A stretch of DNA of 64,000 nucleotides from an uncultured Verrucomicrobiae bacterium (GCA_963837955.1 CAWIPH010000002.1:10966-74965), one strand, 5' to 3'. Counted from the stretch's first letter, positions 35,639 to 61,322 are shown. Numbers and translations: made by a program. Notes: generated by a model from the letters alone, not told the origin.

Positions 35639-35640
35639 CG

Positions 35641-36411
35641 ATGAGCCAACCCACACGGCCGATGCTGCTCGACGTCCAAAATTTGACGAAAACATTTGGA
35701 AACTTCAAAGCGGTTGACGATGTGTCGTTTTTCGTTCGCCCCGGGGAAGTAGTTGGTCTGCTTGGTCCCAGTGGCGCCGGCAAGACCACCACCATCCAGA
35801 TGATTCTTGGATTGATTTCGCCCAGTGCAGGCAGCGTCCGAATCTTTGGACAACTCTTTGAGAAGAACCGTCAACAGATCCTCGAAAAAGTCAGCTTCAC
35901 GGCGCCGTACGTCGCCTTCCCGATCCGGCTCACGGTGTTCGAAAACCTAATGGTTTTCGCCCGCATCTATGATGTTCGCGATCCTGAATCAAAAATCATG
36001 GAATTGCTGCGGATGTTCTCGATAGAGGACCTCAGGAACAAACCAGTTTCTCGTCTTTCCTCCGGCGAGAACACGCGAGTCGGACTTTGTAAGGCGTTGA
36101 TGAACGATCCGAAGTTACTGGTGATGGACGAGCCGACTGCTTACCTCGATCCTCAAGTAGCGCTTCAGGTAAAGAATATCCTCCTCGATTTGCAGCACCG
36201 TTACGGAACAACGATTCTCTACAGCTCCCACAACATGGCCGAGGTGGAAGAGATGTGCAGCCGGATCATTTTTCTTAGCCGTGGCCGGGTGCTTGCGAGC
36301 GGCAGCCCCATAACAGTTACCCAGAGCATCCTGAAAGAGAATCGTCGGGAACCGGCGCTTAAAGAAGTGTTTCTACACGTCGCGAGGAGACGGCTGAATG
36401 AAACTAAATAG
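35641..36411 (+). CDS. ABC transporter ATP-binding protein (ABC-2/DrrA-like)
   Basis: It has Walker A GPSGAGKTT, the signature LSSGENTRV, and Walker B LLVMDEPT. Its end overlaps the permease start. Confidence 0.9.
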   Translation: MSQPTRPMLLDVQNLTKTFGNFKAVDDVSFFVRPGEVVGLLGPSGAGKTTTIQMILGLISPSAGSVRIFGQLFEKNRQQILEKVSFTAPYVAFPIRLTVFENLMVFARIYDVRDPESKIMELLRMFSIEDLRNKPVSRLSSGENTRVGLCKALMNDPKLLVMDEPTAYLDPQVALQVKNILLDLQHRYGTTILYSSHNMAEVEEMCSRIIFLSRGRVLASGSPITVTQSILKENRREPALKEVFLHVARRRLNETK

Positions 36412-37612: not shown

Positions 37613-38387
37613 CTGGGATATTCGGCAAGCTTCATTTGAGTCATTCCCATGAAGATCCCAATTTCATATTAACCCCGCCGATTCTCGAAACTCTTTTTGA
37701 GATCAACCCATTCTTGCGATCATTGTCCTCTCATCACCTTCGCATTTTTCCGAGAAAGATTCTTGGCCGGCCGGCCCATTACATCACTTTCCTGCGCCAT
37801 CCAACGAACACCCTTCTTTCTCGCCTAAGTTACGCGCAACAGAATTTTAAAAATCTGCCCGCGAAGGTAAAAGAATTTTGGCCGGACGAGACGCCTTGCC
37901 TTTCCTTGCGGACCCTCGCCCAATGGTATCTCGACAAATTGGGGGCGACCGAATGCTCTGGCCAGACTTGTTTTTTTTGCCACCCGAACATTTTGGCGAA
38001 AGATCAGTTTCGGATTTTGGTGCTGGTGTTGTTAACCCTGGTCTCGCATCGAACATGCTTAAGCATTTTCTCTTTGTGGGAATTGTTGAAGACATGTCCA
38101 TCAGTCTCGACATTCTGGACGCTCGGCTGCGAGGGCTGGGAATCAGGCTGGGTCGGGAAGGTTTTTTGGGGAGGTTTCGGCACCAGAACCGGAGCCACCG
38201 GAGAAATCTGGCTTGGCTTTGCCAGGAGGACGAGATTGGTCGACGCGTCCTGGCCTGCAACGCCAGTGACCGTCTCCTCTATTCGGAATTCCGCAAAAGA
38301 CTATGGGCTAGCCACTGCGAAATGTTGAGCGGCCAAGACTTCAAGTATCGGTTTTGCCCATACGAAATCGCAAACAACTTGTACTGA
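37543..38387 (+). pseudogene. Sulfotransferase family-2-like protein, frameshifted at a T8 homopolymer (37971-37978)
   Basis: The N-terminal part reads HSHVPKTAGTSVSAHL...YITFLRHPTNTLLSRL (PKTAGTS and (F/L)LR.P motifs) up to GQTCFF. ORF 37878..38387 continues PPEHFGERS...LKHFLFVGIVEDMSISLDILDARLRGLGI. The intact paralog at 55637..56527 is collinear (PQTRFFCSPES...LERFLFVGVTEQIEKSVKLL). A T9 tract would restore a single frame. Confidence 0.65.
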
Positions 38388-44486: not shown

Positions 44487-45419
44487 ATGTCCTCTAACAA
44501 CCAGATGGACGTTCTTTACTCTGTTCAATACCAACTCGATGTCCTGACAGACCAAGTCGACCGGGCGAAGATACTGGCTGCGCAACCGATATTGCGTGAG
44601 TTCCGAAATTTGAGATCCCCTATTCCGCTCGCCGAAGCGGAGTTCCGGGTATTCTCCCAATTTGGAGATGATGGTATCCTCCAGTACGTTGTAACCAGAC
44701 TTGACTTGCCCAAAGCTGAGCGTCGGTTCATCGAATTTGGAGTGGAGGATTATCGAGAATCCAACACTCGGTTTCTGTTACTTAACAATAATTGGAGCGG
44801 GCTGGTGATGGATGGTAGCGAGGATCACATTACGTCTATTCGGCGTAATCAGATCTACTGGAGGTATGATCTTACTGCTTTGGCGCACTTCGTCACCCGC
44901 GAGAACATTAACTCGATTTTCGAGGAGGCCGAGTTTTCGGGCCCGATTGGAATCCTGAGCATCGATGTTGACGGTAACGACTACTGGATCTGGGAAGCCA
45001 TCAGTACGGTAGATCCCGCCGTCGTCATTGTTGAATATAACGGGATCTTTGGGAGCCGCGAGGCAGTGACGATTCCATATCAGGCGGATTTTCTTCGGCA
45101 AAATGCTCATTACTCCTTCCTATACTGGGGAACATCGCTTCAGGCGCTCTGTCATCTCGCTGCCCAAAAAGGGTACGTCTGGATCGGTTGCAATAACGCA
45201 GGAAACAACGCCTACTTCGTGCGAAAGGAGCATGCTCGCGCATTTCATCAGCCAACTTTGCCGGAGGATTTCGTTGCTGCAAAATTCAGGGAAGGAAGAG
45301 ACAAAGAGGGCAATCTTAGCTACGTCGGGCAAGAAAAGGGGTTTGCCCTGATTAAGGATCTTCCTGTCTGGGATGTGGTCAGGAATGAGACACGTGTCGT
45401 TGGTGATCTCGTGCGATAG
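44487..45419 (+). CDS. Hypothetical protein, possibly methyltransferase-fold (FkbM-like)
   Basis: The blocks FSQFGDDGILQYV...FIEFGVEDYRESNTRFL...GILSIDVDGNDYWIWEAI...VIVEYN are seen in uncharacterised glycan-locus proteins. The family assignment is uncertain. Confidence 0.45.
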   Translation: MSSNNQMDVLYSVQYQLDVLTDQVDRAKILAAQPILREFRNLRSPIPLAEAEFRVFSQFGDDGILQYVVTRLDLPKAERRFIEFGVEDYRESNTRFLLLNNNWSGLVMDGSEDHITSIRRNQIYWRYDLTALAHFVTRENINSIFEEAEFSGPIGILSIDVDGNDYWIWEAISTVDPAVVIVEYNGIFGSREAVTIPYQADFLRQNAHYSFLYWGTSLQALCHLAAQKGYVWIGCNNAGNNAYFVRKEHARAFHQPTLPEDFVAAKFREGRDKEGNLSYVGQEKGFALIKDLPVWDVVRNETRVVGDLVR

Positions 45420-46721: not shown

Positions 46722-48126
46722 ATGGAGATACTTTCTAGAATCGCTAAGTTACCCGCCGCTCAGAAGCTTGGTGAATTGATCGACCGCTTTGTCGCGCACT
46801 TCCTGCGCCGAATCGACGATCGGTTGCGCCGAATCGATGATCGGCTGAATCGAATCGATGATCGGCTGCGGCCAATTGACGATCGACAGGATGCGGTAGA
46901 AAGGCTGGTCGTTTCGACTTTGTTGCCGCCCAAAGAGGCAGGTTATGACGTCATAGTGACTGCGAGCGAGGTGAGTGAGAAGCACGGTGCGGGTCTCTTG
47001 TTACGTCGAGCCTTCGATACTTGTCCTCAGATTCTCTCGGTTCGTAGCGCTGATGATTTCAAGGGTGAAAAATCATTCGGAGAGGAAAGCTTCCTGGTGT
47101 CTCACGGGTGGTCATCTCGTCCGAATTGGTTCGCCCATACGCTTCAACAATTGAGAGGAAGAGTGGCGCGTCGGGTGATTTGTGTACCCTATCAGCTGGA
47201 TGAGTTAAAAACCGCGATCACCCTGAAAGAAATCTATGGAGCTCCTATTTGTCTCTGGTTGATGGATGATAAGAGCGTCACGAATCATCAGATTCCATAC
47301 GAGCTGATGAGAGAGTTTCTGGGAAAGTGTTCGTTGCGGTTGACGACCCACGCCGAGCTGCGAGACGCGTATGAACGCGCATTTGGGTTCAAATTCTACC
47401 TTTTTCCGGCTGTGGTCTCCGAAAACTTGATCGTGAAAGAAATCAGAACTCCGCGAGGGGAATTTATGGCGGAAAAGAGAGGGGCGATCTTTGGGAGCAT
47501 TTCGAGCCGGAAATTGGCAGATAAGCTCATGCAGACGATCAAGGTGTCGGGACTGCAGTGTGACTGGTTCGAGAACAATCACCTGCCGAGCTTTGAATTG
47601 AGCGATAGTGAGTTGACGGAAGCAGGGGTCACTCGCCAAGGCATTATTCCGGAGGAAGAGCTTCCCGGCCTGCTCGGACGGTATCCTTACCTTATTGTGC
47701 CCACAGGGGACTTGGATCCCGATGATCCGGAAACGCCCTTGGCTCGGTTGAACTTGCCGGGTCGGATCCTTTTTGCGATGGCGACCTCAAACACACCTTT
47801 CATTGTGCTGGGGCACCCGGATACGCCCGCTGCTCGCTTCGTTAGAGCATTTTCAAGTCGGCTTGCGGTCAGACTATGAGCCCGACGGTTTTTCCGCTGC
47901 GGTCCGGAGCATTGTCGAAGAGAAGACTCAATATGAGATGCGATCGAATGCGGTTGGCGTTGCGCCACTCCTTAGCAGCAAGGGCGCCAGCGACTGGGTC
48001 TTCCGTTCCCTGGAAATGGGCAAGGCTTGCGACGATCGCTTCGAGCGACTAATGCCTTCAGTGGTTGGGGATAAATATTTTTCCCCGTCGATTGAAGGCT
48101 ATTTTTCGCCGGCGATCGGTGGATGA
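46722..48126 (+). pseudogene. Paralog B of the triplicated uncharacterised family, with a 1-nt frameshift at about 47844
   Basis: ORF 46722..47879 carries EVSEKHGAGLLLR, LMDDKSV and LNLPGRILFAMATSNTPFIVLGHPDTPAARFV, then goes out of frame. ORF 47773..48126 continues EHFQVGLRSDYEPDG...ASDWVFRSLEMGKACDDRFERLMP. It is collinear with paralogs A and C. Confidence 0.65.
46806..46889 (+). repeat. 21-bp x4 in-frame tandem repeat encoding heptads RRIDDRL/RRIDDRL/NRIDDRL/RPIDDRQ
   Basis: The four units are CGCCGAATCGACGATCGGTTG, CGCCGAATCGATGATCGGCTG, AATCGAATCGATGATCGGCTG and CGGCCAATTGACGATCGACAG. Confidence 0.95.
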
Positions 48127-49210: not shown

Positions 49211-49645
49211 GTTGATCTGGTGGCAAATTGACCGATAGACCAATCGAAGTTAGCGATTGAATAGACGGCCCTCCAGACGAGATCGATGACCTCAAATGCC
49301 CACTACCCCCTTAATGGGCAAGGTCAGAAGTGCGCTGGGTTTCGTTTCTTAGCACCTCTCCACTAGTTCCTCTAGAAGAGGGAAGCCATCTCGGTGTCCG
49401 GCAAACACCCCACGAAGCCCCTCGATCGCGCCTTGAGCTTCACGACGAATAGCCAACGGTCTGCCACTCCAAAAACGGGGCTAGAAGACAGGAAGCGGAA
49501 CAACTAAATATCCTGCATTCCCGCCCCGTCCCATATTGAACATCTCATTTTTCAGGCGAAGCAATCATTCGGGCCGCGCTCAACGGATGTTTTGAAAGTA
49601 TTTGCATTTCGAGCTGCCGCGATCTTCTCTCGGTACAGTTTCCTT

Positions 49646-51160
49646 ATGTCCCGAAAAGTAACTCTTTTGCTTGTTTTGGCTTTTGCATTTCTTGCCACGC
49701 TTCAGTGGCTGCCTTTGCTGCAGGCAAAGTGGTCCATTCGGAACGACCACGCGTTTATCCAGTTAATGAGTGCTTCCGGAAGAATATCAATGAGTGATTT
49801 CTGGCAGCAGCTCAACCCTCCTGATCAGGCCCTTGGCGGATTAGTAAACCGCCCGATTTACTTCATCGTGCATGATGTTTGGATGCTGGTGATTGGGAAA
49901 AACCTCATCCCGTGGCAAAGCGCGAAAGTTCTAACGTTTGGAGCTGAAATCGGTCTCTTTTTTTTATTCTTTGTGCTTTCGACGGATCTCACAGCAGCCG
50001 TAATACTCGGCTGCTTTGTCGCTTTCCAACCGGATTGGGGAGATATTGTGGCGCTTGCTAACTCCGAACTGTTTGCACTCTTCGGTCTTGTTTTGTATGC
50101 GATCGGCAATCTTGGTTTTCTGCAAAACCGCGGTGCAAGCTCCCGGCAGCAAAGCCAGCCGAAAAATCTTACCAACTATCTCTTGGTCGCTATTGGGGGA
50201 ATCGTCGCCGTCGCTTCGAAGGAGAATTTCTGTTTCACGATCCTCTTTACTTCCGTTTGCTTCCTCGCCTTCTCAATCGTCGTATCGAGGAAGTTTGAAT
50301 TAGCCTGGGCTCAACTTGTTCCTATAGGTACGGCCATGGTTTTTTGTGGTCTGATCATCCATGGAATCCGAGAGAATGCGGGCCAGGCTCTTTACGGCCA
50401 GACCTTCGACCTTTTCGCAATTTGTACTACTGCCTGCGCGCGATTCGTAACGGGTGGTGCGTCGGGCTGGGTGCCGGCAATTCTTTTTGCTGGTTACTCT
50501 ATTTGGTTTCTAAAGGATCCTAATCGGGAGCGGTTATCAGCAGCTCTTTTTGAGCTTCTCCTCCTGGGAGTCGTGTTACTAAATTTTGGCTTTTACACCG
50601 GTGTTCCACTGACTGGACGTTACCTCTTCCCTGAGAACTTAGTTCCGGCTTTTGCTATTCTCCCGGTGCTGCAGGAAGTACGACGGCGGTGCACCCGCAT
50701 CCAGAAGATCTTATCCTATTGTCTGTTGTGGGTCTTTGTTGTTCCCACTAGCATCGCTGGTTTCAAAGCGAACATGCAATGGGCGACCAATTACCGGGAC
50801 GAGACAAAGCGCTTCGATAGAAAACTGAAAAAGGTCGTTGCTGTCGTGTCCAAAGAGCCCGGAAAACCACTTCTCTTCGACAGCTATTCGATTGGCGACG
50901 TCGAACCGCTCGCTTCCGTGGACATTTATCTGACCTCCTACGGCGTTCAGAATCCGAGGTTCGCTCGACTTAATTATTCAGAGGATCAGTTTCAGGATCC
51001 ACACCAAAAATTCTTGGTCCGCTATACGGAAAGTCAGATTGGTCCAAGCGCCACTTTCAGACCATTTCCAGAAATTGGGACGAAGGATTTTTTTAGAATT
51101 AGCTTTTCGTCTCCTAAAGATGAGGCAGATGTGATCGCCAATTTTTACGGCCAAGAATAG
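49646..51160 (+). CDS. Large polytopic membrane protein with a soluble C-terminal domain (GT-C-like glycosyltransferase or polymerase candidate)
   Basis: About 10 predicted TM helices across ~380 aa are followed by a ~120-aa hydrophilic tail. No motif was confidently recognised. The locus also encodes a polyprenol-P-sugar synthase-type GT2. The start is set at MSRKVTLLLVLAF (49646). Confidence 0.5.
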   Translation: MSRKVTLLLVLAFAFLATLQWLPLLQAKWSIRNDHAFIQLMSASGRISMSDFWQQLNPPDQALGGLVNRPIYFIVHDVWMLVIGKNLIPWQSAKVLTFGAEIGLFFLFFVLSTDLTAAVILGCFVAFQPDWGDIVALANSELFALFGLVLYAIGNLGFLQNRGASSRQQSQPKNLTNYLLVAIGGIVAVASKENFCFTILFTSVCFLAFSIVVSRKFELAWAQLVPIGTAMVFCGLIIHGIRENAGQALYGQTFDLFAICTTACARFVTGGASGWVPAILFAGYSIWFLKDPNRERLSAALFELLLLGVVLLNFGFYTGVPLTGRYLFPENLVPAFAILPVLQEVRRRCTRIQKILSYCLLWVFVVPTSIAGFKANMQWATNYRDETKRFDRKLKKVVAVVSKEPGKPLLFDSYSIGDVEPLASVDIYLTSYGVQNPRFARLNYSEDQFQDPHQKFLVRYTESQIGPSATFRPFPEIGTKDFFRISFSSPKDEADVIANFYGQE

Positions 51161-52297: not shown

Positions 52298-53095
52298 ATG
52301 AAAAGTCTTCTCGAGCTACCAAAGCGACAGTATCTGATCCGGCAATACCTAGCTCGTCAAATCGGCCAGCGTTACAAGGGTACAGCTTTAGGGGTTCTGT
52401 GGTCTCTAGCTTCGCCGATCTTCATGCTGCTGGTCTATACGTTTGTGTTCGCTACGGTCATGCATGCTCATTTTGGAATTTCAAAGTCCGAGACAACGCT
52501 GGACTATGGCTTGGCGCTTTTCTGTGGGTTGAACCTTTTCAATTTCTGCGGCGATGTCATCATGCGCTCTCCCTCACTAATTCTTAGTCAGCCCAACCTG
52601 GTTAAGAAAGTTGTGTTCCCGTTGGAGATTCTTCCACTCATCAGCACGCTGGATGCCTTGGTCCATTGTGTCATTGCCTTCATTCCCCTGTTCCTAGCTC
52701 TGGCGATCTTGCACGGTACTGTGCCTTGGTCTTTTGTTTTTTTGGCCGCCTTTCTGATTCCTGCGGCGCTGATTGCGCTCGGATTAAGTCTGTTACTTTC
52801 CGCCATCGGAGTCTTTATCCGCGACGTGCAAAACATGATGACTCCAGCAGTAACTGTCCTCATGTTCGGAAGCGCTGTCTTTTATCCCCTCGCGACCGTG
52901 CCCGACTGGATCCGGCCATGGTTTCAGTTAAATCCCTTAGCCCTGATCATTGAAAACTCCCGAAGAACTCTCATTTGGGGATTGCCCTTGGGGATACCGC
53001 AGCTTGCTTTCGCCAGCTTGTTGGGATTGGTTCTTGTTATAGTGGGATTTTTGTTTTTTGAGAAGTCCAAGCCGGCTTTTGCCGATGTGATGTAA
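52298..53095 (+). CDS. wzm: Polysaccharide ABC-2 exporter permease (Wzm/TagG type)
   Basis: YLIRQYLARQIGQRYKGTALGVLWSLASPIFMLLVYTFVF is the canonical Wzm N-terminal block. The protein has 6 TM segments and is 265 aa. Confidence 0.85.
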   Translation: MKSLLELPKRQYLIRQYLARQIGQRYKGTALGVLWSLASPIFMLLVYTFVFATVMHAHFGISKSETTLDYGLALFCGLNLFNFCGDVIMRSPSLILSQPNLVKKVVFPLEILPLISTLDALVHCVIAFIPLFLALAILHGTVPWSFVFLAAFLIPAALIALGLSLLLSAIGVFIRDVQNMMTPAVTVLMFGSAVFYPLATVPDWIRPWFQLNPLALIIENSRRTLIWGLPLGIPQLAFASLLGLVLVIVGFLFFEKSKPAFADVM

Positions 53096-53101
53096 GCCGC
53101 T

Positions 53102-54538
53102 GTGAGTAGCCTTTCTGACCTTTCTATTTGCGAGACGCCGCCGGTTGCTGCGCAGGAGACGTTGCTCAGTCTCGATCAAATCTCTAAGTCCTATCGGTTG
53201 TGGAACCGTCCTTATGACCGGCTCTTCTATGGGATCTGGAACCAGGTTCCTGGGTATGCTCCGGATCTGATCAGACGTCTGGCAAATCGTCAAAAGGCTG
53301 GACTCGGAAAGGAAGTTTTCGCCCTCGCTGAAGTGACTCTGTCGATTCGGAAAGGTGAAAGCGTTGGGATTATCGGCCGCAACGGCAGCGGAAAGAGTAC
53401 CCTCTTGCAGCTTATTGCCGGGGTCCTTCAGCCTACTTCGGGACGAATTCGGGTGGATGCGAAGCGCGTAACAGCTTTGCTTGAATTGGGCAGTGGGTTT
53501 GATCCGAATTTCACGGGGCGGCAAAACGTTCTGCTGCACGGTTCACTGCTTGGTCTCACCGAGGAAGAGAATCACGCGCGGCTTAGTGAGGTCCTTGATT
53601 TCTCTGAGATCGGCGATTATTTCGATCGCCCGGTCAAGACCTATAGCAGTGGCATGATAGTTCGACTAGCGTTTGCGTCTTCCATCACCGTCCGAGCCGA
53701 TTTATTGATCGTGGACGAGGCGCTAGCGGTCGGCGACATCTTCTTTCAGCAGAAGTGCTTTCACAAGATTCGGGAGTTGGTCAAGGCCGGAGTGACCATC
53801 CTGCTCGTCTCGCATGACTTGCGCTCGATCAGCGAGTTTTGTGATGAGACGCTTTTGCTGGACCACGGTCGGGTCATCTTCTTCGGAGACTCTAACGTGG
53901 CGATTGACCGCTACTACGGCATGACAAAATCGTTCATTTTGGCCGCGCCGGGCGGAGCACGGAAACAGGCTCCGGCCTCGAGCCTATCATCTGTCGAGGA
54001 ACCTCCCCCGGTGCTGATGGAGTCGATTCCCCGGCCAAAGGTGGTTCCATATGAAGACGCCGTTGCGACGTTCCTTCATTTCGCTCTCCTGAATCATGAA
54101 GGAAAGCCTACGAACCTGTTTCGACAAGGCGAATGGCTGACGTTGCTCTTTGACGTCGAAGTGTTGGCTGACGTCGAAAACTTAAGCGCAGGGGTTGTCT
54201 TTCGGGATGACCGGAGAACGTTTTTGCACAGCAAGTACGAATTTCAGACTGATCTAAGGAGTCTGCGCATTGGCAAAAAGGGAGATCATTTTAGAGTCAG
54301 TTATGAGGTTCGTCTCGATGTCGCGCCGGGCCACTATACCCTATCGCTTGACCTGATATCTGTGCCCGCCGAGGCAATAGCTGGCGGAAAATTGGCCTTT
54401 CTCGATTACGAACGCCATTTCCGTCGCGTTTGTCATGCTGGAGATCTTGTTGCGATCACCGTGGGCTTTAATCCTAGCCGTGAAGGCGCGGAATTCTCTC
54501 ACCTCGGGCTCTTCGACCTGCCCACCCGTTTCGACTGA
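53102..54538 (+). CDS. wzt: Polysaccharide ABC exporter ATPase (Wzt/TagH type) with a ~220-aa C-terminal extension
   Basis: It has Walker A GRNGSGKSTL, the signature YSSGMIVRLAFA, and Walker B LLIVDEALAVGD. Residues ~255-478 form an extra beta-rich domain (...FLHFALLNHEGKPTNLFRQGEWLTLLFDVEVLADV...HYTLSLDLISV...), positioned like the Wzt C-terminal glycan-binding domain. Confidence 0.85.
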   Translation: MSSLSDLSICETPPVAAQETLLSLDQISKSYRLWNRPYDRLFYGIWNQVPGYAPDLIRRLANRQKAGLGKEVFALAEVTLSIRKGESVGIIGRNGSGKSTLLQLIAGVLQPTSGRIRVDAKRVTALLELGSGFDPNFTGRQNVLLHGSLLGLTEEENHARLSEVLDFSEIGDYFDRPVKTYSSGMIVRLAFASSITVRADLLIVDEALAVGDIFFQQKCFHKIRELVKAGVTILLVSHDLRSISEFCDETLLLDHGRVIFFGDSNVAIDRYYGMTKSFILAAPGGARKQAPASSLSSVEEPPPVLMESIPRPKVVPYEDAVATFLHFALLNHEGKPTNLFRQGEWLTLLFDVEVLADVENLSAGVVFRDDRRTFLHSKYEFQTDLRSLRIGKKGDHFRVSYEVRLDVAPGHYTLSLDLISVPAEAIAGGKLAFLDYERHFRRVCHAGDLVAITVGFNPSREGAEFSHLGLFDLPTRFD

Positions 54539-54577
54539 TTGGAACTCCCGATACCGGCGAGATAGAAACGTCGATTT

Positions 54578-55513
54578 CTACCTCGATAATGAGGCCGCCC
54601 GGAAGCGCGGCAGTTCTCCCTGGCACCAGTGAAATGCTTTCAAGAACAATTGATAGTCGTGAAAGAAAAGGATTTTTCCCCAACCCACTTTTGACGCACT
54701 CGTCAGATTTGTTGCCATCCGAACGAACTCTTCCCCTTCGACCCGAAAGATGATGATATGCCAGTAATACTCTCGGTCGCGCATTTCGCCAATGACGTCG
54801 GATGAGTTAAAAGGCCGTTGGATCTTGCTATTGCGGTCTTCTCCCTGGAATTCGGCTTGAACGACGGCTGGACGAACTGAACCGAGTCCCCGCACGACCT
54901 CAAGCTCGAGTCCTTTGGCGTCAATCTTCAGAAAATCGATGCTCCCCGGGACCGTTCCGGACGCGGCCAGGGCTGCGAGGGTCGTTGCCGTCGAGGAGTT
55001 CGATTCGGGGGATCCAAGCGCTAAATTGAAGATTCTAACACGTGGTCGACCAGCCATTCGAGCGTTCAATCTTTCGAAGGTTTCGGGTACTGCTTCAAAG
55101 CAAAACACCTCATAGCCGATATCCAGAACTGCCTCTGCAAAGTCACCCGAGTTGGCGCCGACGTCGAAAAGCACACGGTTCGGAAGGAAGTTGTAAAGGA
55201 ATCCAGCCAAATCAGATTCTGGCTCACTTTGCGAGAACATATCGGTCCACAACCATGGTTCGGCCCGACCAGCAGACCAAGCCATAACCGATTTGAGGCG
55301 GTTCACATGTTCAGAAAGTCGCCGAATTTGGTCCTTGGTTCTAATGCCCGTCTGTTCAGTTCTACCAAGGCCCGATTCCAGCCGCCCCAAATGGTTTTCC
55401 AGCCGTCCCAAATGGCTGATTGTAACTTCCAGTTTGTGGCGGACGTCATCTATCCCCAAACCGCTTTGGGCTCTTCGGGAAATTGAGTCTCTAATTTTGT
55501 TTACGATCGACAT
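54578..55513 (-). CDS. Coiled-coil + FkbM-type methyltransferase (intact paralog)
   Basis: A GGAGG motif lies 9 nt upstream of the ATG at 55513. The N-terminal heptad region is HLGRLENHLGRLESGLGRTEQ...IRRLSEHVNRLKS. The FkbM blocks are LFDVGANSGDFAEAVLDIGYEVFCFEAVPETFERL...FLKIDAKGLELEVVRGLG. Confidence 0.7.
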   Translation of the reverse strand: MSIVNKIRDSISRRAQSGLGIDDVRHKLEVTISHLGRLENHLGRLESGLGRTEQTGIRTKDQIRRLSEHVNRLKSVMAWSAGRAEPWLWTDMFSQSEPESDLAGFLYNFLPNRVLFDVGANSGDFAEAVLDIGYEVFCFEAVPETFERLNARMAGRPRVRIFNLALGSPESNSSTATTLAALAASGTVPGSIDFLKIDAKGLELEVVRGLGSVRPAVVQAEFQGEDRNSKIQRPFNSSDVIGEMRDREYYWHIIIFRVEGEEFVRMATNLTSASKVGWGKILFFHDYQLFLKAFHWCQGELPRFRAASLSR

Positions 55514-55636: not shown

Positions 55637-56527
55637 ATGGATGTGGCACATTTCCCCCTCTTCCTTCACTGTCATATCCCAAAGACGGCCGGTGTAAGTG
55701 TAGGCCAGCTTCTTGATTCCACTTTTCATCCTTATCACTTCAATCATTACCATTCTGATCCCCTCTATGTTTTGACTCCTCCAAGGCTCGAGACACTTCT
55801 CAAGATCACACCAACGCTAAGGTCAATCTCTTCGCATAGCCTGCGCACCTTTCCGCGTCAGGTCTGCGGTCGGAAAACCTGTTATATCACTTTTCTTCGT
55901 GATCCTACGGCTGCGTTTGTCTCGCTGCTGAAATATTGCCGTGCTGAATACCGAGCAGGACACCTTTCGGCGGAAGCGCGATGGATGTGGCCGGATGACA
56001 CTCCAACCCGAAGTCTGCGCGATCTTGCTGAATGGTTTCTCGACCAGATCGGAGCTGAGAATTCCTATTCGCCGCAAACGCGTTTTTTCTGTTCTCCGGA
56101 ATCAATGCGAAAAGCTGGTTTCACGGTGGAACATCAGTATGGCGAAGATTGCTTCGAAGTGGCCTCTATGATCTTAGAAAGATTTTTGTTTGTCGGGGTT
56201 ACCGAGCAGATAGAGAAAAGCGTCAAGCTGCTGATCGGCAAGCTAAAGAAACTCGGCATCCAGGTACAGGAACCCGCGTTACCCCACTCGAATCGATCCA
56301 GTTCGAGCGAGGATCTTTCCTGGCTGACGATGAGGGACAAGGTCGGAAAACGTGTGCTAACCTGCAACGAGGTTGACCAGCAGCTTTACGATCGATTCCG
56401 GCTCGCTCTGGAACGCGAATATGCTCGGTTTCAGGAATCGGCTGAAATTTTGGATATTTCCGAGGCTGAACAAACTGCCGGGCCGATCTGTGAATGGGCT
56501 GCGTCTAGGTTTCTGGAGAAGGTTTAA
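55637..56527 (+). CDS. Sulfotransferase family-2-like protein (intact paralog of 37543..38387)
   Basis: HCHIPKTAGVSVGQLL resembles the 5'-PSB loop. YITFLRDPTAAFVSLL resembles the 3'-PB motif. An RBS GGGAGG precedes the ATG. Confidence 0.65.
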   Translation: MDVAHFPLFLHCHIPKTAGVSVGQLLDSTFHPYHFNHYHSDPLYVLTPPRLETLLKITPTLRSISSHSLRTFPRQVCGRKTCYITFLRDPTAAFVSLLKYCRAEYRAGHLSAEARWMWPDDTPTRSLRDLAEWFLDQIGAENSYSPQTRFFCSPESMRKAGFTVEHQYGEDCFEVASMILERFLFVGVTEQIEKSVKLLIGKLKKLGIQVQEPALPHSNRSSSSEDLSWLTMRDKVGKRVLTCNEVDQQLYDRFRLALEREYARFQESAEILDISEAEQTAGPICEWAASRFLEKV

Positions 56528-56581: not shown

Positions 56582-57982
56582 TTACCAGAGACCGGCGGTG
56601 AGCAGGGCCTCTCGGGCAAACACCGCGTCCTGTTGAATGAGTCGACCGGTTGGAGAGTGTCGCCAACAACCGGCATTGTCGAAATACTCAAACCCGAGGT
56701 CGCGAAGCTTTGCCATCATTTCGAAAAATGTCTTTGCCGTCGGCGCATATCGGCCCATCGAGAGTTCAAGGCAAATAACATCGACTTGCTGCAAGAATCG
56801 AGTGGCGCCATCCAGGACGAGATGCTCCCCGAACTGTACATCGATTTTCAGCAGCCCTTTCCCCGAAATCGATTGTTGAGAACTGATTTCGTCCAGCGTG
56901 CGGACCGGAACCAGAACACGCTCCCACTGACGGTCGGGGGAGTGCTCGGCACCATCCAGAAAGCTACTTGAATAAAGATCTGGAGAGACATTCAATTCTG
57001 TCTCTGAGTTTTTGTCACCCGCGGCACTTGCGATAGCGACATATTCCGGGTGCAGCGTGTATATAGAGTTATCCAGTTGCCGGTATTTCTCGAGCAACGG
57101 CTCGATCAAATAGAACCGGCTATTTGGGAAAACTCGGCTAGCGATGAGAGACCAGTAGCCGGTTGAGGCTCCGACATCGACGATAAATTCTGGCCGATAT
57201 CCCGCCGCTCTTAGCCGATAGAGAAAATGGAAACATGGGTGCATGCTCCAGTGGATGCTTCTTGGTGCCGATGGATCTACGTAGGGGGCCGTACGATCTG
57301 CAGTTTCTCGACTCGCACGCTTCTCGGGCTCATCGCTAGCCGGAAAACCGTCCTCCAAGGAATCCAGGATGAGGCGCAGGATTTCGTTACTTTGCCGCGA
57401 GCCCTTTTCGCCGGGGGTTTTCTCGGCGAGTGAGAATTCCGGCAAGAGCCAGACAGGTTTACCCACGCTGGTTTGCACATAGGAGCGAGTCGACGCCGAC
57501 ACAGCGAAGGTGATTCTGGCCTTCCCGAGAGCCTCTGCCAAAAGGCCGCCGGCCCGGTTATCCTTTTGAAAGCAGTTGTCCTGGGCCAAGACGAGAGCCA
57601 TCGGCGATCCCGTAATATCGGCGGTCGCAGTTGCCGCGAAAAGACCTTCGGCATCCTTGGCTACAGCCACTACCCGATCGATTCGATATCTATTCAGAAT
57701 CTCAGCAATCCGGAAATAGGCCAAGGACCGCCCTTTGGTATTTCCCTCAATTAATGGAATGTCCGGAATGGGTAACTCTGTTTCGGCCTCTTTGGCGTCG
57801 ACGAAGAGGGCGACCAAGTTGTTTCCGGTAAATAATCGCGAGCTATCGAGGTGAGCGAATGACTGACTATGCGGATCGGATGGGACCACCAGAAAACAAG
57901 CCGCGGACGATCGAGGTTCGTCGGCCCTTATTTTGGATTTCCCTGCGGTGCCGAAAAATTTATGAAAATCGAGCGATGCCAT
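56582..57982 (-). CDS. Two-domain protein: unknown ~230-aa N-terminal domain fused to a FkbM-type methyltransferase
   Basis: The C-terminal half reads FIVDVGASTGYWSLIASRVFPNSRFYLIEPLLEKYRQL...LLKIDVQFGEHLVLDGATRFL...VICLEL, which is FkbM-like. The N-terminal half reads ...VALFVDAKEAETELP...RVVAVAKDAEGLFAATATADITGSPMALVLAQD... and has no recognised family. Confidence 0.7.
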   Translation of the reverse strand: MASLDFHKFFGTAGKSKIRADEPRSSAACFLVVPSDPHSQSFAHLDSSRLFTGNNLVALFVDAKEAETELPIPDIPLIEGNTKGRSLAYFRIAEILNRYRIDRVVAVAKDAEGLFAATATADITGSPMALVLAQDNCFQKDNRAGGLLAEALGKARITFAVSASTRSYVQTSVGKPVWLLPEFSLAEKTPGEKGSRQSNEILRLILDSLEDGFPASDEPEKRASRETADRTAPYVDPSAPRSIHWSMHPCFHFLYRLRAAGYRPEFIVDVGASTGYWSLIASRVFPNSRFYLIEPLLEKYRQLDNSIYTLHPEYVAIASAAGDKNSETELNVSPDLYSSSFLDGAEHSPDRQWERVLVPVRTLDEISSQQSISGKGLLKIDVQFGEHLVLDGATRFLQQVDVICLELSMGRYAPTAKTFFEMMAKLRDLGFEYFDNAGCWRHSPTGRLIQQDAVFAREALLTAGLW

Positions 57983-58022: not shown

Positions 58023-58781
58023 TCAATGACGCCCCACAATAAAATACCGTGGATCTTGGAACAACGGGAGATCGCTCCGCGCGAAAAGAAGGTCGAATTG
58101 CCAGAAGGCGCTGTCTACTTCGCGATAGAGGATGTCAAAAACGTCCAGGGGACGAAAGCCTAAGTCGAGCATATAGCGGCAAAGGTCCCAGAATGGAACG
58201 GCTGGTCCGCCGAAGGTGAAATTGTAAGCCTCAATTACGATTATGTTCGTTTGTTTCAAGGTCTTGCTAGCGCCACTTAGGATGGGAATCTCGACTCCGT
58301 GGGTGTCCAGTTTGATCATGAACGGCCCGGGGAGCGATTGACTTTCTACCAGGCTGTCGATTGTGTTGACCGGACAAGGCTGGTAGTTCTGATTCAACGG
58401 ACTTTCAGCCAGATGGCCGACCAGTGGATCCGAGGCATCGAAATAAAGTTGGCCCGCCTTGGCTCCTACGGCGGTAACGGCAAAATGCCAGTTAGGGTTC
58501 TTCCGGCAGACCTCGGTGAGTTTCGGGAGATGAATTTGGTTTGCGTCTACCAGCAGATGCTCTCTACCGGGAAAATATCTGGCAAAAGCTTTAGACCAGA
58601 TGCCGTCAGAGGCGCCGATGTCGATCAACGATGCGATTTCGATCTGGTGACCCTGCAAACGACGGAGCGCGTCATCCCGAGTAGGTTCAGCACCTCCCAG
58701 CCGGTGAGCGCGCACCTGGATGCCAAATAATCGGCCGCAGATCGAGTTGATGATCGAAAACGCAAAGGCTACCAGGTTCAT
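58023..58781 (-). CDS. FkbM-family methyltransferase
   Basis: LIDIGASDGIWSKAFARYFPGREHLLVDANQIHLPKL...MIKLDTHGVEIPILSGASKTL...IIVIEAY matches the FkbM pattern. Confidence 0.75.
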   Translation of the reverse strand: MNLVAFAFSIINSICGRLFGIQVRAHRLGGAEPTRDDALRRLQGHQIEIASLIDIGASDGIWSKAFARYFPGREHLLVDANQIHLPKLTEVCRKNPNWHFAVTAVGAKAGQLYFDASDPLVGHLAESPLNQNYQPCPVNTIDSLVESQSLPGPFMIKLDTHGVEIPILSGASKTLKQTNIIVIEAYNFTFGGPAVPFWDLCRYMLDLGFRPLDVFDILYREVDSAFWQFDLLFARSDLPLFQDPRYFIVGRH

Positions 58782-58814: not shown

Positions 58815-60005
58815 TCAACTGAAAATGCGTTCGAATCGCTCATCGATCGGGTGACCGCATTCCAATGAACGCCAGATGAAGTCGGCCAACCCGTGCGAAG
58901 AAAACGCTGCGCTGAGTTGGTTGGCATGAATGCGGATCTCATTGAAACGGGACGGGCTGGTAACCTGGTGAACCGCCCTTTGGAGTGCGCCCGAATCGTA
59001 GGGACATGATGTCCCAAGATCAAGTTTGCGAACGAATTTGGCGGCCGCCGTTTCTTCGTGGCCAAGCACGATAATAGGAATATTGGCGGTGGCCATCAGG
59101 TAAATGATCCGGGACGGCAAGCTGGACTTGGCCAGCCAGTTGTGGCTGCTGCCTTTTTCTAACGTCCCGCTCGGAACGATCGCAAAATCGGCGTTGCGCA
59201 GCTCTTCCACCAGCTCCGGGTCGGGCAGCATCGAGCGAAGGTAGATACCTTCGGACTCCAGTTCCGGAGGATCGAGGACAATAAATGGTTTCCCCGCGTT
59301 GCCGAACCAGTCGACCGATAGACCGGAAGCCCGGACAGTTGCTCGAAAACTGTTTAGCATGTCCAGGCTCCAGACGTTTCCAATCAAAGCTCCTCTAGGT
59401 GATTGGCGCTTATATCGAGCCAACCCGCTCGGGGCGAACAATGCAGGATTGGCCACCGGGGGTATAATCCAAAATTTAGTCTTAAACTTCTCACCGTAAG
59501 CGCGACAGAGAGGCTCCGAAATCGCGAAGCGAATATTGGCTTGGGCGACCAAGGCTGACATCAAGTCATCAGATATTTCCTGTACGTGAATGTTTTGATC
59601 ATCCATTACGTAGAGGGCGATCGGCGCGTCAAAAATCTGGGCTGCCGCTAAAGTGGAGAGGACATCGTCGGGGTAGAAGGGCACCGAAAGAATTCTTCTT
59701 ATCCCGGCCCCGCTCAGCTGGGCTCGGATTTCCTTCCGAGCGCTTTCCAAAGAGCCGCCCGGATGCTCTACGTGAAGAGAGTGATCACCGATCTCATTCC
59801 GCTCGAAAAACTTCCGAGAATGGCAAATCAGGAGTTGTTCTTCTTCTTGAAAGATGTTCTTTAGCAGCGCTCCGGTACCGTGACGAAGAGAGACTTCCGC
59901 GTGAGTTACTAACAGAGATGCCCGATCGAAATCGGCCAGATCGCGTTGAGCGGCGGCTTTTGCTGGGGCGCCTTTCCAGAATTTTCTAATAACCTTCAAC
60001 ATCAA
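58815..60005 (-). CDS. Uncharacterised protein, paralog C of the triplicated family (intact)
   Basis: It carries EVSLRHGTGALLK, VMDDQNI, SSLPSRIIYLMATANIPIIVLGHEETAAAKFVRKL and ADFIWRSLECGHPIDERFERIFS. It is 396 aa and is the first gene of a minus-strand operon with two FkbM genes. Confidence 0.65.
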   Translation of the reverse strand: MMLKVIRKFWKGAPAKAAAQRDLADFDRASLLVTHAEVSLRHGTGALLKNIFQEEEQLLICHSRKFFERNEIGDHSLHVEHPGGSLESARKEIRAQLSGAGIRRILSVPFYPDDVLSTLAAAQIFDAPIALYVMDDQNIHVQEISDDLMSALVAQANIRFAISEPLCRAYGEKFKTKFWIIPPVANPALFAPSGLARYKRQSPRGALIGNVWSLDMLNSFRATVRASGLSVDWFGNAGKPFIVLDPPELESEGIYLRSMLPDPELVEELRNADFAIVPSGTLEKGSSHNWLAKSSLPSRIIYLMATANIPIIVLGHEETAAAKFVRKLDLGTSCPYDSGALQRAVHQVTSPSRFNEIRIHANQLSAAFSSHGLADFIWRSLECGHPIDERFERIFS

Positions 60006-60095
60006 CTCGCCTGGTAGTATTTGCGATTTACTGGCTGTTCAGCCTTACTTAGAGCAGACTTCCGACAAATCCTTCAGCAAAATCCACAGACTTCT

Positions 60096-61322
60096 ATGGG
60101 ATTGGACGTTCCAGTTCTGTTTCTCATTTTTAACCGTCCCGAATTGACGCACCAAGTCTTTCAAACGATTCGCGCCTCTCGGCCTGCCCGACTCTATATC
60201 GCCGCCGACGGGCCCCGAGCGGAGAAAGCCGGAGAGTGGAAGCTTTGCGCTGAAACCCGGGAGGTTGCAAAGAAAATAGATTGGTCCTGTGAGCTCAAAA
60301 CTCTGTTTCGAGACGACAATCTCGGGTGCGGACAAGCCGTCAGCGAAGCGATCGGTTGGTTTTTCGATCATGAGGAAAAAGGGATCATTTTGGAAGATGA
60401 CTGTCTGCCGGACGCGAGCTTTTATCCATTTTGTGGCGAAATGTTGGATCGATTTCAGGATGAGGATCGGGTTGGGTCGATTTCCGGGAACAACTTTTTG
60501 CCTCCTTCCTTGCATGCTTCTCAGCCTTATCTCTTCTCCAAGTACGTTCAAATCTGGGGTTGGGCGACCTGGAGGAGGTTTTGGAAGTTCTATGACTTTG
60601 ATCTGAAGGGCGAAGAAGAAGAATGGGAAAAGATCATTCGCCGGGTAAATCCCGTTGATAAGCACGCCCGTTATTGGCTCGAAATTTTTCGTGCGCTGCG
60701 ATCAGGGCTCATTGATACCTGGGATTACCAGGTGATGTTTTCCGCTTGGAAGGCCGACTTGGTTCACATTTATCCGAGTCGAAATCTCATGTCGAATCTT
60801 GGTTATGGCGACCATGCGACTCACACCAACTTCGAGAGCCCAGTCGCTCAGCTCGCGACCGGATCGATCGAGAATTTTCAGGTCACCCTTCCGGTGGTGA
60901 TTGATCCGATGCTCGATGACGCGACCTTCTATTTTCGGTTTCTTGAATCGCTGACCAACGTCTGGTGGTTGGAGCAGGCCTTGGACCTCACTGAGAAATT
61001 GGCTTGGAGCCGTTGGCAAATTAACCAAGCTCAAAAGGAAGTCACCCAGCTCAAGGAGGTCTGTGACGACCAGGCTCGACAGGTCGCGAAAATTGCGGCG
61101 ACCAGGTCCAGAGCAATCTACCGAACCAACCTGGTATTGTTGTTGTCGCACTGGGTCTATACAATGCGCGAAGCGTTAACGTTGGCTCGTACCCGATTCA
61201 ACCGAATGATTGGAAGACGGCGTCTGAGTGACCGAGGAACTTCTGGAACGGACACAGAGGAAAAGAAACAGCTCGTTTCGCCGGAAATCGAGCGAGCCGG
61301 CCGCGTTCATCCCGACCGATGA
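60096..61322 (+). CDS. GT-A-type nucleotide-diphospho-sugar transferase-like protein with a coiled-coil C-terminus
   Basis: VPVLFLIFNRPELTHQVFQTIRASRPARLYIAADGPR...GCGQAVSEAIGWFFDHEEKGIILEDDCLPDASFYPF includes a DxD-like EDD. The C-terminus is WQINQAQKEVTQLKEVCDDQARQVAKI. The start is set at the ATG at 60096. Confidence 0.6.
   Translation: MGLDVPVLFLIFNRPELTHQVFQTIRASRPARLYIAADGPRAEKAGEWKLCAETREVAKKIDWSCELKTLFRDDNLGCGQAVSEAIGWFFDHEEKGIILEDDCLPDASFYPFCGEMLDRFQDEDRVGSISGNNFLPPSLHASQPYLFSKYVQIWGWATWRRFWKFYDFDLKGEEEEWEKIIRRVNPVDKHARYWLEIFRALRSGLIDTWDYQVMFSAWKADLVHIYPSRNLMSNLGYGDHATHTNFESPVAQLATGSIENFQVTLPVVIDPMLDDATFYFRFLESLTNVWWLEQALDLTEKLAWSRWQINQAQKEVTQLKEVCDDQARQVAKIAATRSRAIYRTNLVLLLSHWVYTMREALTLARTRFNRMIGRRRLSDRGTSGTDTEEKKQLVSPEIERAGRVHPDR

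Follow-up and report, generated by a model that had tools for sequence, protein, structure and literature searches.

The window analysed here, 64,000 nucleotides of DNA from an uncultured Verrucomicrobiae bacterium (GCA_963837955.1 CAWIPH010000002.1:10966-74965), encodes beside a polysaccharide exporter a protein, FkbM-A, in which a heptad stalk carries a methyltransferase-fold domain with decayed motifs. The arrangement recalls the coiled-coil terminator/ruler paradigm (PMC11231755, PMC5082667). Our preferred reading, held tentatively and at slightly less than an even chance, is that FkbM-A is part of a half-machine on the WbdD/WbbB plan, in which it would act as a spacer or scaffold stalk while the cap comes from a neighbouring intact enzyme. 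The original prediction described FkbM-A as a WbdD-like terminator/ruler analogue, and much speaks for that picture, namely the ABC-dependent locus, the Wzt with a carbohydrate-binding domain (CBD), the heptad stalk, the coupling and fusions to a GT-B glycosyltransferase and the heptad-quantised stalk length; the loss of the FkbM lid and of the D-x-E-G glutamate does not fit it. The features are listed in Table 1.

Table 1. Features of the window, in positions counted from its first nucleotide, with the evidence for each
Feature	Position	Strand	Evidence
unk472, GT-B paralogue encoded just upstream of FkbM-B in module 2	32326-33744	+	36% identical to unk396, E 5e-72
FkbM-B, stalked FkbM, +1 frameshift near 34177-34199	33750-34782	+	paralogue of FkbM-A
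Module 2	34889-37612	+	Pfam: sulfotransferase 34889-35638; ABC_tran 35641-36411; ABC2_membrane 36398-37612
unk385, a third paralogue of the GT-B type; its N-terminus bears heptads of its own, RIDDRLx x4	46722-48054	+	33% identical to unk396, E 8e-52
Wzm, ABC-2 permease of exporter 1	52298-53095	+	PF01061 ABC2_membrane, 81.5 bits
Wzt, exporter 1 ATPase, 478 aa: NBD, linker, C-terminal CBD	53102-54538	+	PF00005 and PF14524
Wzt_C carbohydrate-binding domain, Wzt residues 318-478	54053-54535	+	PF14524; CBD crystal structures 6o14/8dky
FkbM-A, stalked lid-less FkbM-derived protein, 311 aa, convergent to Wzt	54578-55513	-	FkbM profiles, AF2, 99% identical allele, pN/pS
Class I SAM-methyltransferase-fold domain, FkbM-A residues 98-300	54614-55222	-	AF2 pLDDT >90; Foldseek matches are class I methyltransferases including WbdD
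Deletion scar, FkbM-A residues ~167-178, in place of ~48 aa of FkbM lid	54980-55015	-	alignment with P0018, P0046, P0050
Heptad stalk, FkbM-A residues 21-81; 63 aa = 9 heptads between family anchors	55271-55453	-	heptad test, AF2, anchor spacing
21-bp tandem repeat, 1.9 copies, encodes HLGRLEN/HLGRLES	55376-55415	-	TRF, 94% matches
Cationic N-terminal head helix, FkbM-A residues 3-18, ends in near-invariant L-G-I-D	55460-55507	-	AF2 helix 3-18
Sulfotransferase, 296 aa, divergent from FkbM-A; cap/modification candidate	55637-56527	+	PF03567 Sulfotransfer_2, 24.2 bits against a cutoff of 22
FkbM466, remnant of GT-B N-terminal half and full FkbM domain	56582-57982	-	PF05050 full profile, 52.5 bits; TIGR01444, 83.8 bits
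FkbM252, small intact FkbM methyltransferase	58023-58781	-	PF05050, 41.2 bits; TIGR01444, 70.1 bits
unk396, novel GT-B glycosyltransferase, putative polymerase	58815-60005	-	AF2 pLDDT 90, pTM 0.89; Foldseek
unk433, conserved divergent neighbour	60021-61322	+	N-terminus GT-A-like, C-terminus with coiled-coil-like segment, by sequence reading

Exporter 1 is encoded by wzm and wzt, with wzm directly upstream and ending 6 nt before the wzt start. The ABC part of Wzt (PF00005, 81.3 bits) is a nucleotide-binding domain of the Wzt/TagH type, with Wzm as its neighbouring ABC-2 permease, and the closest solved structure is the full-length Wzt of Aquifex aeolicus (7k2t/8dku, E 5e-62, in two stretches). 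The C-terminal extension of Wzt that had been predicted is a real Wzt_C domain: PF14524 matches residues 318-418 with 49.5 bits against a curated cutoff of 30.4, and the last 193 aa searched alone match the crystallised CBD (6o14/8dky, E 1.3e-5). Its folded part is shorter than the ~220 aa first supposed, some ~160 aa following a ~40-aa linker.

The FkbM-A reading frame is intact and starts at an ATG preceded by GGAGGTGA, a strong Shine-Dalgarno sequence, whereas promoter and terminator scans around the gene gave results at chance level. Within the stalk, core hydrophobic residues occupy 72% of the a/d positions and 12% of the others, a contrast reached by none of 5000 shuffles, with a Fourier peak at 3.50, and AlphaFold2 models residues 21-81 as a single 61-residue helix. 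The N-terminal heptad region expected in this protein is thereby confirmed, as it is in FkbM-B (p=0.0014), and the stalk, with a predicted length of ~9 nm, would form an oligomeric coiled coil. Across the family the head preceding it has a net charge of +3 and a median hydrophobic moment of 0.64, with K, Q and LGID near-invariant; for the head of FkbM-A itself the amphipathicity test did not reach significance (p=0.15), so a membrane-anchoring role for it is something we infer.

FkbM-A passes the FkbM thresholds of Pfam (PF05050, 37.1 bits, cutoff 22.7) and TIGR01444 (55.2, cutoff 37.7, in two stretches), although the Pfam match covers only positions 99-151 of the 173 in the profile. The label of FkbM methyltransferase given to it earlier is right as to family, but the domain is incomplete. 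Compared with the intact P0018, P0046 and P0050, ~40 aa are missing from the lid, the stretch that runs from NLALG to the LKID strand, and pLDDT is low at residues 171-175 within the scar. In both known alleles the family IDTEG motif reads KIDAKG, a Glu to Lys change. SAM motif I (DVGANSGDF), the acidic CFEAVPE after strand 2 and FNLALG are retained, and all seven strands of the class I core are present in the AlphaFold2 model, so FkbM-A may still bind SAM and even methylate. Its capping chemistry has probably been lost. The top Foldseek matches of the domain are all class I SAM methyltransferases, with WbdD (4azs) at rank 5; both proteins have class I SAM-methyltransferase folds, and the idea that FkbM-A belongs to a different fold family from WbdD has to be abandoned.

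The gene is maintained. An independent metagenome contains an allele that is 99% identical and shares the lid deletion, and we rejected an assembly artefact as the origin of the deletion for that reason. The two alleles differ by five synonymous and two non-synonymous changes (pN/pS ~0.13), which we take as signs of purifying selection. All 23 of the 23 family-invariant residues are kept in FkbM-A, and these positions lie outside the SAM motifs.

The state of the stalked FkbM was compared with the type of Wzt encoded nearby. A CBD-bearing Wzt goes with a lid-less or degenerate stalked FkbM in five out of five sampled lineages (the window, L004/L026, L006, L042 and L043), whereas a CBD-less Wzt lies beside an intact one in the L003 lineage and L047, a comparison of five against two lineages, possibly non-independent and all from similar soil metagenomes (Fisher p ~0.05). 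L006, L042 and L043 have the CBD-bearing Wzt near degenerate family members. L004/L026 share synteny with the window and a 61% identical CBD, and here the stalked FkbM, the closest syntenic orthologue of FkbM-A, reads VDAGVRNPEY / FCLLFT / IDLMNVGAGYSE and has no SAM motifs at all. This pattern, in which the intact members are those beside a CBD-less Wzt, speaks against the proposal that FkbM-A makes the cap read by Wzt. Since FkbM-A lacks the lid and reads IDAKG, and since its relatives are degenerate wherever Wzt carries a CBD, it is probably a spacer or scaffold, and with its capping chemistry probably lost the cap is likely to come from a neighbouring enzyme.

Several neighbours could supply it. 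The gene divergent from FkbM-A does encode a sulfotransferase, as had been proposed, with a Sulfotransfer_2 match above the cutoff. FkbM466 is the strongest candidate for the actual terminal methyltransferase; its residues 84-183 share homology with the GT-B family (hhalign 96.9%), its type is fused to GT-B in P0181/P0185, and it has a weak match to RfbT (PF05575). In L009, L022, L028 and L044 the gene just upstream of a lid-less stalked FkbM is an orthologue of FkbM252. The product of unk433 gave a faint GT25 match only, with no PDB sequence match and no usable Pfam or NCBIfam match, and has orthologues of 59-65% identity in L004, L009, L018, L022, L043 and L044. The locus is unusually rich in methyltransferases.

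A different reading, which we consider unlikely but still worth weighing, takes FkbM-A for a working O-methyltransferase that sits on a coiled-coil ruler and acts on the chain terminus, its methyl cap being read by the Wzt CBD. It would account for the retained motif I, FEA and NLALG on a whole class I core, for scores above the FkbM family thresholds, for the signs of purifying selection and for the position next to a CBD-bearing Wzt, and stalked FkbMs are normally intact in this family, one of them in a fusion with a GT-B and a coiled coil (P0199). It is opposed by the missing ~40 aa of lid and the change from IDTEG to IDAKG, by the syntenic orthologue without SAM motifs next to a 61% identical CBD, and by the non-canonical stalked FkbMs of all five CBD-Wzt lineages where intact ones keep company with a CBD-less Wzt. 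Moreover, three intact FkbMs and one sulfotransferase are encoded within 7 kb.

The putative polymerase, unk396, has no Pfam, NCBIfam or PDB sequence match and was recognised as a GT-B glycosyltransferase from its model, which in Foldseek matches ManT (7qsg, the top match), MshA and PimA; it may represent a new glycosyltransferase family. In 16 of 22 distinct loci the stalked FkbM has a GT-B gene upstream, and in some organisms the modules are joined. P0071 and P0193 are in-frame fusions of GT-B, head, stalk and degenerate FkbM, P0199 joins GT-B and a coiled coil to an intact FkbM, P0203 joins a coiled-coil FkbM to the FkbM466 type, and L007 encodes a 973-aa fusion of Methyltransf_11, coiled coil and GT-B. 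In P0181, P0185 and P0072 the GT-B is fused straight to an FkbM or Methyltransf_24 domain with no stalk between them. The fusions P0071, P0193 and P0199 set the GT-B beside the head and, with the gene order, offer genetic support for a polymerase that would be fused or recruited at the proximal end of the stalk.

The stalked FkbM proteins to which FkbM-A belongs form a large family without a name, with 130 clusters at E<=1e-30, and the usual build is a long coiled coil with an intact FkbM domain: among 71 clusters sampled, 53 keep their motifs intact and show a median of 123 heptad-patterned residues, and the stalks of intact members reach >300. Named relatives are from Verrucomicrobiota or Chthoniobacterales; a scan of GTDB genomes gave three loci only, and the P0214 contig is too short to show an exporter. 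A full-text literature search found no paper joining FkbM to coiled coils or chain length. Across 54 homologues the anchors are 35 to 147 aa apart, in an exact heptad series, and stalk length differs in 126 of 143 pairs that are >=80% identical downstream of the stalk, with heptad steps present even between proteins 95-96% identical. The DNA beneath this variation is a 21-bp tandem array, of which homologues carry up to 10.5 copies.

It is improbable, in our estimation, that there is no ruler at all and that the coiled coil serves only to oligomerise an enzyme, or the remnant of one, that O-methylates sugars within the chain beside the GT-B, as with ManT in methylmannose polysaccharide synthesis, with the length variation arising from neutral 21-bp slippage. 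Heptad multiples do follow automatically from 21-bp tandem repeats, ManT, which heads the structural matches of the GT-B partner, is an enzyme of the methylmannose polysaccharide pathway, the locus has many methyltransferases, and stalkless GT-B fusions to FkbM or Methyltransf_24 exist (P0181, P0185, P0072). Yet the a/d hydrophobic pattern is kept across different, independently expanded repeat units, the >300 heptad-patterned residues of intact members go far beyond the needs of oligomerisation, head and stalk survive even where the catalytic site is destroyed, and a layout with the glycosyltransferase at one end and the methyltransferase at the other recurs in fusions.

A second, frameshifted coiled-coil FkbM beside the other ABC exporter had also been foreseen, and FkbM-B is indeed a frameshifted paralogue adjoining ABC_tran and ABC2_membrane genes. 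Its motifs (DVGANIG, FNLALG and KIDTEGFDLEV) are intact, and the ABC ATPase of its module (256 aa) has no CBD. With unk385, which is frameshifted near 47846-47851, three paralogous glycan genes in the window carry frameshifts, the third lying within 37935-38016, and these may be long-read assembly errors, since split genes abound in related ENA contigs. It is very unlikely that FkbM-A is a decaying, functionless duplicate, broken by in-frame deletion as FkbM-B was by frameshift: the lid deletion, the E-to-K change and the three frameshifted genes would suit such decay, but the frameshifts are possibly assembly errors, and FkbM-A has an intact reading frame with a strong Shine-Dalgarno sequence, a 99% identical allele elsewhere with five synonymous and two non-synonymous changes, all 23 family-invariant residues and a confidently modelled domain (pLDDT >90).

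In the spacer or scaffold reading that we prefer, Wzm/Wzt would export a lipid-linked polymer in an ABC-transporter-dependent glycan assembly. FkbM-A would be the stalk component, its cationic head lying at the polymerase or membrane end, where unk396 and its paralogues would dock, or be covalently fused in some organisms. The ~9 nm heptad coiled coil would hold the FkbM-derived domain away from the polymerisation site. Across the wider family an intact distal methyltransferase on a long stalk would fit a terminator on a ruler; in the genome of the window FkbM-A is most likely a spacer or scaffold that may have kept the ability to bind SAM or the chain end. Installing the cap would fall to FkbM466, FkbM252 or the sulfotransferase, and the Wzt CBD would presumably inspect this terminal cap as its ligand.

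More speculatively, and with little confidence, a dead or crippled FkbM on a stalk of 21-bp repeats could be a non-enzymatic chain-end sensor, or a dock that holds another, active FkbM in position. Repeat slippage could then retune glycan length in soil Verrucomicrobiota, in the manner of a contingency locus, and a CBD-bearing Wzt could have taken over quality control after the ruler's own enzyme decayed.

The ruler model has so far rested on a few enterobacterial prototypes. The locus described here indicates that soil bacteria possess stalked FkbMs forming a large, unnamed family, paired with an unannotated GT-B family. Stalks of 5 to >40 heptads, shifting between near-identical strains, provide a natural experiment for the ruler hypothesis, and repeated loss of the active site with head, stalk and C-terminal surfaces kept raises a question that does not arise with the prototypes, namely whether a ruler can work without its own terminator.

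Among known systems, the Wzm-Wzt of A. aeolicus (7k2t, 8dku, 6o14) gives the nearest solved relative of the Wzt of the window over both NBD and CBD, although the CBD match is of low identity and spans only ~90 residues. In structure unk396 comes closest to the GT4-like GT-B enzymes ManT (7qsg), MshA and PimA, with TM ~0.6 but an identity of ~14%, and unk396 has conserved motifs of its own (HGTG, MDDQN and LPSR). PF05575 is the family of Vibrio cholerae O1 WbeT/RfbT, the terminal perosamine 2-O-methyltransferase. RfbT, which is related to FkbM, caps an O-antigen whose export depends on an ABC transporter, and it is not known to have a coiled coil; the weak similarity to it belongs to FkbM466 and not to FkbM-A.

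WbdD of Escherichia coli O9a and Klebsiella pneumoniae O3 and O5, like FkbM-A, sets a class I methyltransferase fold on a heptad stalk, and the layout of the window is also alike in having a separate polymerase, recruited at the other end in WbdD, and a Wzt with a CBD. The two proteins are mirror images, however, as the head and stalk of FkbM-A are N-terminal and its methyltransferase domain C-terminal. FkbM-A has no kinase domain, its methyltransferase is of the FkbM subtype and lacks the lid, its stalk is less than half as long (~9 nm against ~20 nm), and the polymerase partner is a novel GT-B, not WbdA. Profile searches with FkbM-A gave no match to a WbdD-type family, and apart from the class I fold no sequence homology between the two is detectable. 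In WbbB of K. pneumoniae O12 and ORF6-O7 of K. pneumoniae O7, terminator, coiled coil and polymerase form a single polypeptide, whereas in the window the modules are separate genes. The catalytic modules of WbbB and ORF6-O7, a GT99 Kdo transferase or a CgnL-like methyltransferase and kinase, with GT2 polymerases, are unrelated to those of the FkbM-A family, but in P0071, P0193, P0199 and the 973-aa L007 protein a glycosyltransferase and a methyltransferase sit at opposite ends of a coiled coil, which is the arrangement set out in PMC11231755.

The gene calls and coordinates predicted for Wzt, FkbM-A (the stalked FkbM-derived protein beside it), a second copy, FkbM-B, and a sulfotransferase were borne out. 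Wzt ends in a Wzt_C domain as proposed (residues 318-418, 49.5 bits against a cutoff of 30.4); the extension had been put at ~220 aa, but the folded module is ~160 aa and follows a proline-/serine-rich linker. The nearest solved relative, full-length Aquifex aeolicus Wzt (7k2t/8dku), aligned in two stretches, and the last 193 residues alone match the crystallised carbohydrate-binding domain (CBD) 6o14/8dky (E 1.3e-5). The multi-pass membrane protein encoded shortly before a Methyltransf_24 gene and Wzm could be a periplasmic-face glycan-modifying enzyme.

Features of the glycan locus, in window positions
Feature	Position	Strand	Length	Assignment
unk472	32326-33744	+		GT-B paralogue
FkbM-B	33750-34782	+		paralogue of FkbM-A
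ST2-like	37543-38328			sulfotransferase
unk310	44487-45419			faint FkbM match only, E 0.015
unk385	46722-48054	+		GT-B paralogue
Membrane protein	49592-51160		522 aa	sub-threshold DUF6056 match
Wzm	52298-53095			PF01061; gap to Wzt 6 nt
Wzt	53102-54538		478 aa	ABC ATPase and Wzt_C domains
FkbM-A	54578-55513	-	311 aa	stalked FkbM-derived protein
Sulfotransferase	55637-56527			Sulfotransfer_2
FkbM466	56582-57982	-		FkbM gene
FkbM252	58023-58781	-		FkbM gene
unk396	58815-60005	-	396 aa	GT-B protein
unk433	60021-61322	+		divergent from unk396

The FkbM-A gene is convergent to Wzt, its ATG start is preceded by GGAGGTGA, and the product lies above both curated FkbM thresholds. In an AlphaFold2 model built from a 51-sequence alignment (pLDDT 81), a helix at residues 3-18 (the head) is followed by a single unbroken helix at 21-81 (the stalk, nine heptads), a low-confidence linker and a confidently modelled seven-stranded α/β domain at 98-300. 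The heptad region expected at the N-terminus was upheld both by this 61-residue helix and by a/d statistics: core hydrophobics occupy 72% of a/d positions vs 12% of other positions, a contrast reached by none of 5000 shuffles (neither of two globular control segments was significant), and hydrophobicity recurs with a dominant period of 3.50 residues. No large ORF of the window other than FkbM-A and FkbM-B contains long heptad runs free of proline. Structural matches of the C-terminal domain are class I SAM methyltransferases, with the WbdD methyltransferase domain (4azs) at rank 5; the original prediction of a different fold family was therefore incorrect, the fold being shared and the subfamily different.

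FkbM-B proves to be a genuine paralogue, interrupted by a +1 frameshift near 34177-34199; its neighbours are an ABC-2 permease and a CBD-less ABC ATPase. The ST2-like sulfotransferase (37935-38016) and unk385 (47846-47851) are also frameshifted, and each of the three glycan genes has an intact paralogue in the Wzt-CBD module. The frameshifts may mark redundant copies in decay or else be indel errors from long reads, given that split genes are numerous in several related ENA contigs (L042, L043).

Some 60 close homologues of FkbM-A come mostly from soil metagenomes, the named ones being Verrucomicrobiota or Chthoniobacterales. Common to them are a cationic head with terminal L-G-I-D, the linker RLKSFLTW..NRVEPW...NFLP and a strongly conserved C-terminus, EYYWN..FR...WGxxFFF..LFLKA.HWC..LPRF. 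The two anchors are separated by 35 to 147 residues, and the lengths step by exact heptads: 35, 42, 49 ... 147 in one sub-clade and 45, 52, 59 ... 101 in the other. Different repeat units (VIGSKLD, KSASIEA, TRTAxID, a 14-mer, some 11-mers) have expanded independently. Among 143 pairs with at least 80% identity in the part following the stalk, 126 have stalks of unequal length, and even at 95-96% identity the difference is one to three heptads. The underlying DNA is a 21-bp tandem array, with 10.5 copies (91% matches) in locus L001 and 1.9 copies in the FkbM-A gene (55376-55415). A dense toxin-antitoxin island (PIN, PhdYeFM, RHH) adjoins the glycan locus beside the stalked FkbM in L001 (434-7243) and L002 (581-5430), accompanied in L001 by an IS110 transposase.

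The positions that never vary in the family are not those of the SAM-binding motifs. In most close homologues DVGAADSEF replaces DVGANxG and IDTGDTD replaces IDTEG, and in many the lid between strands 3 and 4 is deleted. FkbM-A is intermediate: it retains DVGANSGDF, CFEAVPE and FNLALG, reads KIDAKG, and has 9 residues at the lid site vs ~48 in intact members, leaving it an incomplete FkbM-family member that lacks the lid and D-x-E-G. The deletion is real, since a 99% identical protein on a JGI contig from a separate sample shares these features. With FkbM-A lid-less and FkbM-B frameshifted, the window genome therefore has no canonical stalked FkbM. The small FkbM252-type methyltransferase at L044 9025-9966 bears a head and a short stalk itself, and the next gene downstream encodes a stalked FkbM without a lid; this suggests an active/inactive paralogue pair joined via coiled coils.

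When 1.84 billion representatives were searched with a profile, 679 matched at E<=1e-3, of which 315 reached E<=1e-10 and 130 E<=1e-30. The C-terminal signature is present in 64 of the 71 sequences examined, and the motifs are intact in 53. The N-terminal extensions of these 53 are 85-565 aa long (median 162 aa), with a median of 123 heptad-patterned residues (maximum 335); public records label them just "FkbM family methyltransferase". A long coiled coil with an intact FkbM domain is thus the norm, and FkbM-A a short-stalk, lid-less offshoot. Six representatives (P0212, P0213, P0222, P0231, P0241, P0247) have SWKxTxPxR near the C-terminus, following, in the five sequences read (all but P0241), a second, C-terminal coiled coil past the FkbM domain; the motif may bind a membrane or a partner.

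The most consistent neighbour of stalked FkbMs is the GT-B protein unk396, not Wzt. It has no sequence match in Pfam, NCBIfam or PDB, and its model (pLDDT 90, pTM 0.89) adopts a GT-B glycosyltransferase fold best matched by ManT (methylmannose polysaccharide pathway), MshA, PimA and BshA at ~14% identity. The window holds three paralogues (unk396, unk385, and unk472 directly upstream of FkbM-B), and at 16 of 22 distinct loci the stalked FkbM is closely preceded by a GT-B gene of this family in the same orientation. Fusions join GT-B, head, stalk and degenerate FkbM (P0071, P0193), GT-B, coiled coil and intact FkbM (P0199), stalked FkbM and an FkbM466-type module (P0203), and GT-B and an FkbM466-type domain (P0181, P0185); FkbM466 itself retains a vestige of the N-terminal half of GT-B. 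In a 973-aa protein at L007 2245-5166, Methyltransf_11 (residues 80-173) is linked to an unk385-type GT-B domain by a long coiled coil.

That protein is a canonical terminator-ruler-polymerase polypeptide, and its locus also holds a degenerate stalked FkbM. In unk385 (46722-47879) an N-terminal helix of its own precedes four tandem RIDDRLx heptads, so GT-B enzymes as well as FkbM proteins bear heptad stalks, which hints at hetero-oligomeric coiled coils. The ~196 GT-B homologues, all 'hypothetical', share HGTG, MDDQN and LPSR and may form a new GT family; fusion to FkbM, to Methyltransf_24 or to a further GT-B copy is frequent among them. Also conserved is unk433, whose orthologues at six loci share 59-65% identity with it; the N-terminus has a GT-A-like look (LIFNRPE...DGPR), a coiled-coil-like segment at ~330-385 precedes a hydrophobic helix, and it matches no family or PDB entry. 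Of the accessory genes, unk310 is the best conserved between related loci (73-78% identity in L001, L006, L007, L029 and L042).

In the established paradigm, chain-length control in ABC-transporter-dependent synthesis is recognised by a coiled-coil protein that keeps its distal module apart from the polymerase, and the Wzt CBD reads the terminal cap (PMC11231755, PMC5082667). Directly observed here are the domains, the heptad stalk, its quantised and fast-changing length, GT-B coupling and fusion, ABC-2 exporter adjacency and catalytic-motif decay. We tentatively favour, at just short of an even chance, a reading in which the GT-B proteins would be the polymerase, the head would mark the polymerase/membrane end (as it is kept next to GT-B even in fusions), the stalk would set the distance, the distal domain of FkbM-A in the window genome would serve as scaffold or sensor, and neighbouring FkbM466, FkbM252 or the sulfotransferase would put on the cap.

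The original prediction had FkbM-A as an active capper making the cap read by the Wzt CBD. The CBD is real, but in all five lineages with a CBD-bearing Wzt near a stalked FkbM (the window, L004/L026, L006, L042, L043) the FkbM domain either lacks the lid or is degenerate; in L004/L026, with synteny identical to the window (CBD 61%, NBD 71% identical), it is without any SAM motifs. Intact stalked FkbMs instead adjoin CBD-less Wzt of 250-265 aa, in the L003 lineage and L047 (an 8.8-Mb genome). At five vs two lineages (Fisher p ~0.05), all loci coming from similar soil metagenomes, the association is suggestive only; it runs against FkbM-A making the cap, and we consider an active capper unlikely, at about one chance in four. 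A complex methylating within the chain rather than acting as a ruler seems less probable still. That FkbM-A is a dead gene is very improbable; its window and JGI alleles differ by 5 synonymous and 2 non-synonymous changes (pN/pS ~0.13, from small numbers).

No paper tying FkbM to coiled coils or chain length was found in the searchable literature; an earlier listing in the Mann, Kimber and Whitfield 2019 census is possible. In layout the FkbM-A locus would be functionally of the same type as WbdD/WbbB. It differs from WbdD in having no kinase, a reversed order, an FkbM-subtype methyltransferase and a different partner GT, and its modelled helix would reach ~9 nm, compared with ~20 nm for WbdD.
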